A DNA stretch of 64,000 nt from an uncultured Holophaga sp. Its GTDB lineage: Bacteria; Acidobacteriota; Holophagae; Holophagales; Holophagaceae. Position numbers and translations under genes: made by a program. How positions within the stretch are numbered: the first letter of the stretch is position 1; every line of letters begins with the position of its first letter. Under the pieces are notes generated by a model, which saw only the letters and a program-made list of their open reading frames with translations, ran no database searches and had not been told where the DNA came from. Positions 21,618-24,973 of this stretch are shown piece after piece. The DNA is taken from contig OY761614.1 in the NCBI GenBank assembly GCA_963664825.1, positions 2,816,001 to 2,880,000 on the forward strand, in the 5' to 3' direction.

Positions 21618-22577
21618 ATGCCCTTCTTCGATCTGGCTTCCCTCACCAAGCCCCTGGTGACCGCGCCCCTGGTGCTCCAGCACCTGGACCTGGATGCCGA
21701 TAGGCGGCATCAGCTCGGTTTCGAGGAACGCACCGATCCCCTGACTGTCCGACAGCTGCTGTCCCATTCCTCGGGGCTTCCCGCCTGGCTGCCCTATACG
21801 GGTGAACCCCTGGCCGAACAGCTGCGCCGGGGAATGCCCGAGGGCCATCCCCTCTTCCGGGAGGGGCGGCAGGGCCTGGCCGTCTACTCGGACCTGGGCT
21901 ACCGGCTCCTGGCCGAACTCCTCGAACGCGAAACCGGGCGGGCCTTCCCGGAACTGGGCCTGGAGGCTACGGGTCTTGTGCCCGCGCCCTGGGAAGATTC
22001 GGTCGAGGCCATTCCCGATGGCCCGGACGCCGCGGCCTGGACCCTGGCCGAACCCCAGTGCCCCCTTCCTTCCCGGGCGGCCAATCTCCCCCACGACGCC
22101 AATGCCCGTGCGGGCATGAGGGGACATGCGGGGTTCGGCTGCACGCCCGTCCAGATGAAGACCTGGCTGCGGGCCTGGGCGGGTTCCCGCACCCCGGCCC
22201 GCATGGCCGTGGAGACGGCGCGCGCCGCGGATGGAACGGTCTGGGGCCTCGGATTGCAGCGGGTCTTCGACGGGGCCTGGCACTTCGGACAGTTGCTTTC
22301 CAGGATCCCCCTGGGGATCCAGGGCGTCCACGTGTTGAGCTCCACGGCAACCGATCTGCCTCTTCCGCTGCCGGTGCCCAAGCCCGGAGCGGGCAAGCCC
22401 ACGGCCTTCTGGATGCACTTCGGCTACACGGGACCGGCCCTCTTCATCCGTCCGGAGGATGGCCTCTGCCTCTGCCTGCTCCTGCATCGCCGCGGCCCCG
22501 AGGGTGAAATCCTCGATCTAGATACCCTGCGCGCCCGTCGCTGGCGGATGCTGGAGGCCTTCCTGGCGCAGTTCTGA
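21618..22577 (+). CDS. Serine hydrolase, beta-lactamase/esterase family
   Basis: DLASLTK (SxxK), LLSHSSGLP, YSDLGY, GHAG, HFGYTG. Confidence 0.85.
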   Translation: MPFFDLASLTKPLVTAPLVLQHLDLDADRRHQLGFEERTDPLTVRQLLSHSSGLPAWLPYTGEPLAEQLRRGMPEGHPLFREGRQGLAVYSDLGYRLLAELLERETGRAFPELGLEATGLVPAPWEDSVEAIPDGPDAAAWTLAEPQCPLPSRAANLPHDANARAGMRGHAGFGCTPVQMKTWLRAWAGSRTPARMAVETARAADGTVWGLGLQRVFDGAWHFGQLLSRIPLGIQGVHVLSSTATDLPLPLPVPKPGAGKPTAFWMHFGYTGPALFIRPEDGLCLCLLLHRRGPEGEILDLDTLRARRWRMLEAFLAQF

Positions 22578-23294
22578 AACAGCTTCCCCCTCTGGATGGG
22601 CCCAGGCCCGGGTCATGCGCCGCAGGGGAGGATGGGCCATCCGCGCAGCGGCCAGGAGCCGTTCCTCGGGTGAGAGGGCCTTGATCCAGGGCGCTGCGTG
22701 GCCCAGCACCAGCGGGCAATCCGGGCCACGGAAGGTCTGGTCCATGGCCCACAGCACCTGATGGGCGACGGGGATGACCTCCCGCCAGCGGGATTGCACC
22801 AGGGCCTCCACATGCTCGGGCAGGAGGGGCGGTTGGATGAAGGCCACCAGGGCCTCCATCCCCAGCTTGGGATGCTGCAGGAAACTTTCGATCACGCGCC
22901 TATCCCGCAGGCGCCAGATGTGCGACCAGAATTGCGGAGGGGCGTGGAGCGCGAAGGAGCGCCGCTCACCGGTGGTGATGGCGCTCCAGAGTGATTGGAG
23001 GCGCTCGATGGCCATGGCGCGGGCCTGGGGGTGGGCGGCGGCGTCTCCGGCGATCTCGCTCAGGGCCCTCCAGGGCAGGCGGGGCAGGAGGCTCATTCGG
23101 AGAGAGGCGGGCGTCTTGCGATGTTGGGCGATCCAGCGCAGGAGGGGAGGGCGCCTCTGCACCTCCGGGAGTTCGGCGGCGGCCTCGAGCCAGCCCCTGG
23201 GAGGGGAGGGATGCCTCAGCAGCCTCAGGAACTGAGGCCAGGGCAGCTGGGGGGGGAGGGGCCATTCCACAGGCCCATTGTGGCCCAGGGCCAT
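22518..23294 (-). CDS. Hypothetical helical-repeat protein
   Basis: Open 258-aa frame with host-like codon bias; repeats like AQHRKTP and LQHPKL; start uncertain. Confidence 0.6.
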   Translation of the reverse strand: MALGHNGPVEWPLPPQLPWPQFLRLLRHPSPPRGWLEAAAELPEVQRRPPLLRWIAQHRKTPASLRMSLLPRLPWRALSEIAGDAAAHPQARAMAIERLQSLWSAITTGERRSFALHAPPQFWSHIWRLRDRRVIESFLQHPKLGMEALVAFIQPPLLPEHVEALVQSRWREVIPVAHQVLWAMDQTFRGPDCPLVLGHAAPWIKALSPEERLLAAARMAHPPLRRMTRAWAHPEGEAVSELRQEGLQHPPATGAQGI

Positions 23295-23355: not shown

Positions 23356-23988
23356 ATGGCCATTGAATTCACCATCCTGGGGCGGGGCCGCGCGGGGCGC
23401 GCCCTGGCGGCGGCCTGGGGCGACCGTGTGGCGCTGACATCCCACGAGGGCTCTCCAGGAGGCTGGGTGCTGCTGGCCGTGCCCGACGCCGCCGTGGAAG
23501 ACCTCGCCTCGAAATTCCAGGGCCGCTGCGTTCACCTGAGCGGCAGCCTTCATCTGGAGGGGGTGCCCTGCGCCCACCCTCTCACTAGCTTCGATGGGGA
23601 GGCCCGGGATTGGCGGGGCACACCCCTGGCCGTGACAGGGGAACTGCCCCTGGGGATCCGCACGGCCTTCGAGGCCCTCGGTTTTATGCCCTTCGTCTTG
23701 CCGGCGCACCTGAAGCCTCTCTACCACGCATGCGCCGTGCTCAGTTCGGGCCATGCCGCCAGTCTCTGGGTCGGCGCCGCCAGGCTTTTGGAGGAGGCGG
23801 GTGTGGCCTTGCCGGGCCGGGGGTTTCTGCCCCTGGCGGAAGCGACCCTCCGCAATGTGGCCGAGAAGGGCGCCGAGGGACGCACAGGCCCCTTCGGGAG
23901 GAAGGACGAGGCCACCATCGGGCGGGACGCGGAGGCTCTGCCTGCCGAATGGCGGGAGATTTTCCTGCGCCTGGGGAGAATGATTTGA
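23356..23988 (+). CDS. Rossmann-like / DUF2520 domain protein
   Basis: GRGRAG, LAVPD, HLSGS, HPL, YHACAV, TGP. Confidence 0.85.
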   Translation: MAIEFTILGRGRAGRALAAAWGDRVALTSHEGSPGGWVLLAVPDAAVEDLASKFQGRCVHLSGSLHLEGVPCAHPLTSFDGEARDWRGTPLAVTGELPLGIRTAFEALGFMPFVLPAHLKPLYHACAVLSSGHAASLWVGAARLLEEAGVALPGRGFLPLAEATLRNVAEKGAEGRTGPFGRKDEATIGRDAEALPAEWREIFLRLGRMI

Positions 23989-24170
23989 ATCCACTGGATT
24001 GGGATTTGGGGAATATCCCTCCGGGCATCGCCTGGGGCGGCGTCGATGGGGGGTCCCGCTCCGCGATCCAGGGCCGAAGGGCCTGGGAGTGGGAGGACGG
24101 CCCGGTGGGCCGTCCGTTCGCGGGCCGCCCAGTGCTTCATCCCGCCGCCCCTGCCTGGAGGCTGAATTGA
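23985..24170 (+). CDS. Possible 61-aa leader ORF starting with the duplicated RnhB N-terminus
   Basis: GGGGAG SD; TTG overlaps the upstream stop (TTGA); its stop overlaps the rnhB TTG. Confidence 0.35.
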   Translation: MNPLDWDLGNIPPGIAWGGVDGGSRSAIQGRRAWEWEDGPVGRPFAGRPVLHPAAPAWRLN

Positions 24171-24230
24171 ATCCATTGGATTGGGATTTAGGAAATATCC
24201 CACCGGGCATCGCCTGGGGCGGCGTCGATG
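23985..24230 (+). repeat. Direct repeat of the rnhB first 64 nt (23985-24048 and 24167-24230) flanking a structured insert
   Basis: 60/64 identical; all four differences synonymous. Confidence 0.95.
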
Positions 24231-24973
24231 AAGCCGGCCGGGGCGCCTGGGCGGGGCCGGTGGTGGCCGCCTGTGCGGTGCTGGATCCGGCTTCGGTCCA
24301 GCGCTGGAGTCACGTGCTGCGCGGCGCCAGGGATAGCAAGAAGCTCAGCCCCGAGCGCCGGGAGGCTCTCGCCTCCGAACTCAGGGTCGTGCTCCCGGCC
24401 TGGTCCGTGGCCGTCATCGATAACCTCGCCATCGACCGGGAAAATATCCTCCAGGCCACTCTCCAGGCCATGCGACAGGCTGTGTCCAGTCTGGAGGTCC
24501 GGCCCAGGATCCTCTTCGTGGACGGGGATCGCGCCCCCCGCACGGGGCTGCCGGAGCGATTGTTGGTGGAGGGCGATGCCCTCAGCTGCGCGGTGGCCTG
24601 TGCCTCTATTTTGGCCAAGACCCACCGGGACGCGCTCATGCGGGAGCTCGATGCCCAGTATCCCGACTATGGCTTCGCCAAGCACAAGGGATACGGTACG
24701 CCGGAGCACAGCCGGGCCCTGAAGGCCCTGGGAGCCTGTGCCGTGCATCGCATCACCTACGGGCCCGTGGCCGCCCTCCTGCGCCCGGATCCCGCCCTGA
24801 GGGAGGCCCTGATGGCCTCCCTGGAGGCCTGCTCGGATATCCCCGGGATGCAATCCTGGGTGGAGACGGCGCTGAAGCCTGCCTATGGGCGCCTTTCGGC
24901 GGCCTGGGTGGAGGCCCTGCGGGATCGTTACGCCGAAAGGCTCGCCGGATTTGCCGTCGCGGGAAACGCATGA
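24167..24973 (+). CDS. rnhB: Ribonuclease HII with C-terminal extension
   Basis: GVDEAGRGAWAGPV, RDSKKL, VDG, ASILAK, YGFAKHKGYGT; GGAGG SD before TTG. Confidence 0.95.
   Translation: MNPLDWDLGNIPPGIAWGGVDEAGRGAWAGPVVAACAVLDPASVQRWSHVLRGARDSKKLSPERREALASELRVVLPAWSVAVIDNLAIDRENILQATLQAMRQAVSSLEVRPRILFVDGDRAPRTGLPERLLVEGDALSCAVACASILAKTHRDALMRELDAQYPDYGFAKHKGYGTPEHSRALKALGACAVHRITYGPVAALLRPDPALREALMASLEACSDIPGMQSWVETALKPAYGRLSAAWVEALRDRYAERLAGFAVAGNA

Follow-up and report, generated by a model that had tools for sequence, protein, structure and literature searches.

A REP-like element of the Holophagaceae that probably carries a target-matching antisense stretch and a replacement gene end

We analysed an insert near the start of rnhB, the gene for RNase HII, in a 64,000-nucleotide (nt) stretch of DNA (the window) from an uncultured Holophaga sp. 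(assembly GCA_963664825.1, contig OY761614.1, positions 2,816,001 to 2,880,000 of the forward strand); the source genome is one 3.47-Mb contig that contains the window. The insert very probably belongs to a family of mobile elements that carry a stretch matching their target and a replacement end for the gene they enter. The bare core of the element is of a known kind, similar to repetitive extragenic palindromes (REPs); the novelty lies in its combination with a guide for each target and a replacement gene end. A preliminary description of the same DNA had proposed that the antisense stretch in the insert acts as an RNA switch, and had listed among the alternatives a target-recognition sequence of a mobile element, which is the reading supported here.

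An insert between two copies of the rnhB start

The first 64 nt of rnhB occur again 182 nt upstream, and 118 nt separate the two copies. At its full extent the direct repeat (23975-24048 and 24157-24230, spacing 182) shows 91% identity. A public contig, X1, which may come from the source sample, covers positions 23500-24700 of the window unbroken and with zero differences. Because X1 spans the whole stretch unchanged, the duplication of the rnhB end is unlikely to be an assembly artefact. The features of the locus, with the evidence for each, are listed below; T1 and T2 denote the resident and the replacement copy of the gene end.

23985..24048, + strand: T1, resident 5' end of rnhB from start codon to junction, now the head of the leader open reading frame (ORF); direct repeat, with 4 differences from T2, all silent
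23985..24170, + strand: leader ORF of 61 codons, a product of the insertion, whose stop overlaps the rnhB start; translation, same frame in five carriers
24049..24131, + strand: conserved core, composed of a G-rich leader and a three-way junction (P1, P2 arm, P3); covariation and covariance-model (CM) matches
24055-24059 with 24120-24124, + strand: P1 pairing in the core; fold
within 24049..24131, + strand: P2 arm of the core, with tandem GA and a GAA triloop at 24076-24078; fold
24089..24118, + strand: REP-like unit within the core (GTGG tag, GAG, palindrome P3, CG(A/T)T tail); flanks as in the Pseudomonas REPs of Table 1 in PMC3686654
24134..24151, + strand: antisense stretch (putative guide), its 5' half matching 4 nt after the junction and its 3' half the gene end before the junction; complementarity
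24157..24161, + strand: Shine-Dalgarno (SD)-like GGAGG brought by the element; sequence, also in other carriers
24167..24230, + strand: T2, replacement 5' end of rnhB that appears to travel with the element, with the junction 24230/24231 inside the GVD/EAGRG motif; direct repeat
24167..24973, + strand: rnhB, intact RNase HII reading frame of 268 aa; Pfam PF01351, NCBIfam NF000595 above cut-off
23356..23988, + strand: DUF2520 gene, upstream neighbour, whose stop shares bases with the TTG of the first rnhB copy; Pfam PF10728, ORF list

The antisense stretch across the rnhB junction was confirmed. Apart from a 2x1 internal loop, positions 24134-24151 are reverse-complementary to 24216-24234: 9 bp form with 24216-24224 and another 8 with 24227-24234, the latter with four bp on each side of the junction. 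The weaker pairing with the upstream copy at 24034-24048 was also found as described (9+4 bp; -32.3 vs -36.4 kcal/mol for the downstream duplex, with RNA parameters), and the two helices are indeed mutually exclusive, since both can form and each excludes the other. The best duplex between insert and junction scored -34.9, compared with -26.8 +/- 2.6 for shuffled sequences, of which only 3 in 1000 were as low.

The same layout at many unrelated genes

Many elements of this kind share a common order: gene end, core, antisense stretch, second gene-end copy, and the remainder of the gene. In the main subfamily the upstream repeat ended exactly at the start of the core in 93 of the 97 readable cores, 4 further cores lying at contig edges. 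In a broader set, 38 of 80 loci passed a strict repeat filter, the others being bare, nested, tandem or more diverged. The unit formed by core, guide and replacement gene end measures 182 nt at rnhB and 126-309 nt in most single copies read. Tandem and 5'-truncated copies were found, and the arrays are head-to-tail.

We collected 120 distinct junctions, comprising 83 antisense insertions at 3' ends of genes, 28 sense insertions at 5' ends, and 9 in non-coding or unclear positions. Of the 83 antisense junctions, 79 have a repeat that extends, in both copies, as far as the stop codon, and in 82 a stop codon in frame is present in T2. Where the target is a 5' end, the SD comes from the element, and the guide of one class contains the start codon. 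The targets fall into over 50 classes, tRNA and signal recognition particle (SRP) RNA genes and genes assigned to Pfam families among them; others, judged from sequence, are presumably dusB, prfA, yebC, clpB, metK, ruvB and ychF. One subfamily carries, directly after the core, a sense copy of the post-junction bases.

The antisense stretch follows its target

The guide is 7-17 nt long and differs per target, and in short variants it starts 0-3 nt past the core. For 126 elements in 53 target classes, we scored the first member of each class for a perfect complement across its own junction. Complements of at least 7 nt that span the junction were found in 23 of 53 classes, compared with 104 of 2756 cross pairs (3.8%) and 72 of 1378 shifted windows (5.2%). 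At a threshold of at least 8 nt the corresponding counts were 17 of 53, 37 of 2756 (1.3%) and 26 of 1378 (1.9%). Guide pairing peaked at -3 to +3 around the junction.

The rnhB carriers point the same way. Among 123 family genomes with a match to the rnhB 5' end (the gene of one, G008, lies at a contig end, which leaves its carrier status undecided), the second copy and the insert occur at the same base in five: G000, G004, G006, G021 and G118. The preliminary description had called for a look at conservation in relatives with the insert; the first 8 nt of the antisense stretch, which lie across the junction when paired, are invariant in all five carriers, while neighbouring spacers vary. In G118 the distal part of the guide is altered together with a silent change in the target, as expected of a compensatory change.

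In genus g1 the carriers make up one clade; those in g14 group separately. A single carrier clade was rejected (approximately unbiased test, p-AU 3e-5) in a tree of 32 rows, after removal of a long-branch row and of two rows that had less than 260 nt of upstream sequence; on all 35 rows p-AU was 2e-60. The split between two genera therefore calls for transfer or many losses. In four carrier genomes the GC content at third codon positions (GC3) is 0.39-0.56 in the repeat vs 0.77-0.93 in the gene body. It was also observed that the silent sites of the duplicated rnhB segment (24167-24230; loci L002, L004 and L018) are unusually AT-rich compared with the gene body and with most empty alleles.

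The replacement gene end is a working one

Filled and empty alleles were both observed. Over 79 elements, the single-base codon differences between T1 and T2 comprised 175 silent and 53 replacement changes, a ratio that counts related elements separately and is not an independent-sample statistic. By codon position, the differences numbered 195 at third, 57 at first and 27 at second positions. In antisense elements (n=63), where T1 lies behind the stop and is untranslated, 140 silent changes stood against 36 replacements. Since the differences are mainly silent, both copies must stem from working alleles, and the element carries a working replacement end. Mismatches between T1 and T2 were lowest beside the junction, at 2% in the first 10 nt and 4-9% further out. 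T2 showed no strand-specific excess of C-to-T changes (58 vs 47).

The core and its distribution

The core makes up the 5' part (about 83 nt) of the 118-nt insert and folds as a three-way junction. In an alignment from which the structure itself was derived, 13 of 23 pairs had changed on both sides and 98% of cells were paired; none of 500 shuffles scored as high. The 4-nt leader of the core co-varies in all subfamilies with the first bases of P1, as their base-by-base complement. A leader triplex, suggested by this complementarity (10/10 with CTCC in informative subfamilies), was rejected on the ground that a 0-1-nt linker does not seem to fit an intrastrand triplex.

The CM found the core in 112 of 133 genomes of the Holophagaceae, a family of soil and freshwater bacteria, with about 920 matches. 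The source genome has 17 matches at E<1e-5 with an improved model, and five other genomes have 18-44 each. An exact core pattern run over a species collection matched 65 loci, whose titles name Geothrix, Holophagaceae, Holophagales or Acidobacteria, and one Solibacteraceae bin. In a 151-genome sample of the phylum, the core occurred outside the family in 3 genomes only, always inside ORF-less group II introns. Pattern scans of metagenomes gave zero matches, pattern matches in viral contigs were not confirmed as cores by the CM, a further viral scan gave none, and plasmid and phage collections held nothing beyond short chance matches to the core.

Bare cores without guide or gene end exist, as do cores nested in the loops of other cores or in a four-helix-bundle gene. 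Several variants deserve mention in their own right. Repeats of about 430 nt with terminal inverted repeats, similar to the miniature inverted-repeat type of transposable element (MITE), contain a core (L292, L293, L295, L299). In G024 (L349, L351, L353, L358, L359), tandem 65-nt bare cores end just 5' of start codons. A shorter relative of the core without the P2 arm has five copies (G000:C1:832986, 1858267, 2267246, 2712437 and 2810956), at least two of them between duplicated ends. The ORF-less group II introns L213:1329-2060, L216 and L217, from another Acidobacteriota family, have the core in domain I, where it forms an additional subdomain; the related intron L235 lacks it.

DNA-type loops

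The hairpin loops give an indication of the form in which the element acts. In 88 elements, cGNAg triloops numbered 50, vs 2 on the other strand, and GNRA tetraloops were absent; in seven group II intron controls, 12 of the 21 tetraloops listed were GNRA. Loops of the cGNAg type are very stable in DNA, as described in PMC3201870. The predominance of cGNAg triloops therefore points to single-stranded DNA (ssDNA), which we consider the more likely form of the element.

Proposed mechanism and alternative explanations

On balance we lean, by a small measure, towards a non-autonomous element that is excised and inserted as ssDNA under its own guide; the mechanism, including action as folded ssDNA, is deduced from the geometry and the precedent of IS200/IS605. 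The core would be bound, as folded ssDNA, beside the junction by an enzyme that cuts and joins. The guide would serve as a splint whose 3' half holds the gene end and whose 5' half holds the bases after the junction. On the chromosome, the splint would align T1 with the rest of the gene and release a circle of core, guide and T2, while at an empty allele the same pairing would pick the site and the circle would be inserted by the reverse reaction. T2, with its own SD and start or its own stop, would restore the gene. Repeated insertion could produce tandem arrays, and bare cores without guide or gene end might spread too, as REPs do. More tentatively, and with somewhat less than even expectation, we propose that these are protein-less homing elements of a new class. 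In them, one single-strand cut-and-join activity, possibly host-encoded or even DNA-catalysed, would make scar-free insertions into any chosen gene end, as programmed by a short DNA guide in cis, and more than 50 naturally evolved guide-target pairs would exist in one family.

A number of observations weigh against guided insertion as ssDNA. The guide test, in which clustering divides or joins some classes and related elements are not independent, left 30 of 53 first members with a perfect match shorter than 7 nt, and only 28 of 53 classes had any member that reached 7 nt; mismatches in the guide showed no excess of G.T over A.C (2 vs 6). T1 and T2 of one genome resemble each other more than either resembles other genomes, so that re-insertion within species or gene conversion is needed. 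A second loop census of 79 cores was less clean, with 38 cGNAg loops, 6 in the reverse orientation and 12 GNRA. No circle or excision joint was seen in assembled contigs, and no lagging-template bias in one genome (9 of 18, with origin and terminus placed from GC skew). Among about 180 cores read, there was no long version with an ORF. Nor did a partner enzyme emerge: the source genome has no Y1 transposase, REP-associated tyrosine transposase (RAYT) or reverse transcriptase (RT); RAYT was above cut-off in 0/133 genomes; Y1 occurs in 22/133, with no core near the Y1 loci inspected; the RT, IS91 and GxxExxY loci tested adjoin no core; IS110 (DEDD recombinase) occurs in 45/133, with no core in 15 loci tested; and 13 GIY-YIG loci from six core-rich genomes showed no core at E<0.5.

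Other searches for a partner gave similar results. DUF559 was absent from 5 core-rich genomes. No ORF lies between the repeats, and the 115 neighbouring ORFs scanned (of 206) are ordinary housekeeping genes; the single integrase-family match among the neighbours is itself a target.

Among the alternatives, a passive origin retains the most weight, while still being rather unlikely in our estimate. On this view, a REP-like core would insert close to hairpins. Template switching at the founding insertion would have left the antisense stretch and the gene-end duplicate as scars, and the composite would spread by homologous recombination with no targeting. This fits the bare and nested cores (in loops of other cores, the four-helix-bundle gene, the MITE-like repeats and the ORF-less introns), the subfamily with a sense copy after the core, the many guides that are short or decayed, and the homogenisation of T1 and T2 within genomes; a template-switch origin of each antisense stretch is possible. 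Against passive copying stand the fixed register in which the repeat ends at the core start, the minimum of mismatches next to the junction, the constancy of 8 guide bases across two genera while the distal part follows a silent change in the target, and the silent-site bias of the antisense elements, which a passive copy would not show. An RNA origin seems less probable still. It would make the element a self-splicing or circularising RNA, perhaps from domain I of a group II intron, in which the antisense stretch serves as exon-binding site or internal guide and which an RT in trans writes into DNA. It draws on the position of the cores outside the family, which in the phylum sample lie only in the exon-binding region of introns, on G.U-type pairs on one strand of the stems, on the tandem and 5'-truncated copies, and on the low GC3 of the rnhB repeat. 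Against it, the related intron L235 lacks the core, group II introns occur in just 5/133 genomes and are absent from the source genome, and RT is distributed opposite to the core (34/133 genomes; 9/12 in a core-scarce genus, 0/27 in three core-rich genera). The DNA-type loops, the lack of an Rfam match at the locus and the antisense orientation of most copies to their gene likewise disagree with it.

We regard the switch of the preliminary description as very improbable. It held that RNase HII translation is controlled by two RNA helices, between which ribosomes that translate the leader ORF would switch. The two helices are each able to form. The leader ORF is also real: in all five carriers (spacings 182 and 188) it is open, and its stop overlaps the rnhB start, which couples the two; it is the regulatory role of this ORF that did not stand, and we read the overlap as keeping rnhB translated rather than regulating it. 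Pairing with the upstream copy was supposed to free the rnhB SD, but the full-context fold gave the opposite, with an SD unpaired probability of 0.02-0.03 under upstream pairing vs 0.25 under downstream pairing; in that fold upstream pairing prevailed (10.4 vs 0.7 expected guide pairs). The insert is found at rnhB in few genomes, and the identical layout recurs at dozens of unrelated genes, mostly on the opposite strand behind stop codons. At 83 of the 120 distinct junctions the element lies antisense at a 3' end and no start codon takes part, so that a switch at rnhB is unsupported.

Comparison with known systems

Integrase islands rebuild the genes that they split, and their attachment sites lie in tRNA and housekeeping genes. 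The element resembles them in its crossover inside a conserved gene, the replacement end under purifying selection, the targeting of tRNA 3' ends and the restored gene. In contrast to them, it measures about 0.2 kb, has no integrase beside the site, and has dozens of different targets, with no common core sequence, that are matched by an antisense stretch. Reprogrammable pairing to both sides of a junction is known from the IS110 bridge RNA and the internal guides of group I and II introns. The element shares this pairing, but its guide is a single contiguous one, in cis and to one strand, its loops are of the DNA type, and it has a long gene-end duplication and neither a recombinase nor a ribozyme core. 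Domains I-VI of a group II intron, with the catalytic domain V, were not recognised at the locus by the Rfam search. Repeats of Ssn nucleases place a hairpin beside a small GIY-YIG gene, an arrangement that the core does not show in the 13 GIY-YIG loci tested.

Among the closest known systems are REPs, with their REPIN doublets, their bacterial interspersed mosaic elements (BIMEs) and RAYTs (TnpA-REP, group 3 type). P3 and its flanks have the form of Pseudomonas REPs, given as GT(G/A)GGAG-palindrome-CGAT in Table 1 of PMC3686654; degenerate REP tags are described in PMC3733652. Both kinds are non-coding, with many copies, tandem arrays and a strand-specific fold, and a tetranucleotide of the GTAG type precedes P3 (GTGG, GCGG or GCAG). 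Unlike REPs, the REP unit of the element sits in a three-way junction, is single rather than an inverted doublet, and lies inside genes instead of extragenic DNA; with it come an antisense stretch specific to the target and a copy of the gene end of 20-220 nt, and no RAYT flanked by the repeats was found. In IS200/IS605 elements (IS608, ISDra2), DNA guides beside hairpins select the cleavage sites, as described in PMC3333891 and PMC8266576, and the element has, beside a hairpin, a short stretch complementary to the presumed cleavage site, a putative guide, and may act as folded ssDNA. It differs in that its guide is 7-17 nt long, covers both sides of the junction and is target-specific, in its replacement gene end, and in showing neither a link to TnpA (Y1) nor a bias to the lagging-strand template.

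Our literature search, in which coverage of subscription journals was thin, found no description of the composite element; the bare core could be listed in the supplementary REP catalogues of PMC3733652 or PMC6006769. How REP-like repeats move and choose their sites is a long-open question, and here the target is apparently written in the element. If the guide directs insertion, a DNA-guided recombination activity remains to be found, and dozens of natural guide-target pairs make the targeting rules testable in harmless cultured Geothrix strains. Through these elements, strains also exchange the ends of housekeeping genes, tRNAs and SRP RNA.

Other repeats and neighbouring genes

A 122-nt repeat that flanks an integrase/IS91-type pair in the source genome belongs to another hairpin family. 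GxxExxY cassettes were rejected as partners, having their own inverted repeats and no core. These GxxExxY (PDDEXK_3) genes (L457-L468) are intergenic and, each being enclosed by imperfect inverted repeats of its own, look like small mobile cassettes. A second hairpin repeat family of about 95 nt (G000:C1:829810, 832846, 947393, 2111581 and about 12 more) resembles the flanks of the GxxExxY genes, and some of its copies likewise lie between duplicated gene ends. In the window, a 258-aa ORF at 22521-23294 on the reverse strand is divergent from the DUF2520 gene and has no Pfam or NCBIfam match. At G000:C1:2532000-2539900, an array of attC-like repeats of about 125 nt with cassette-like ORFs adjoins integrase-family and IS110-type genes, and has the appearance of a chromosomal integron.
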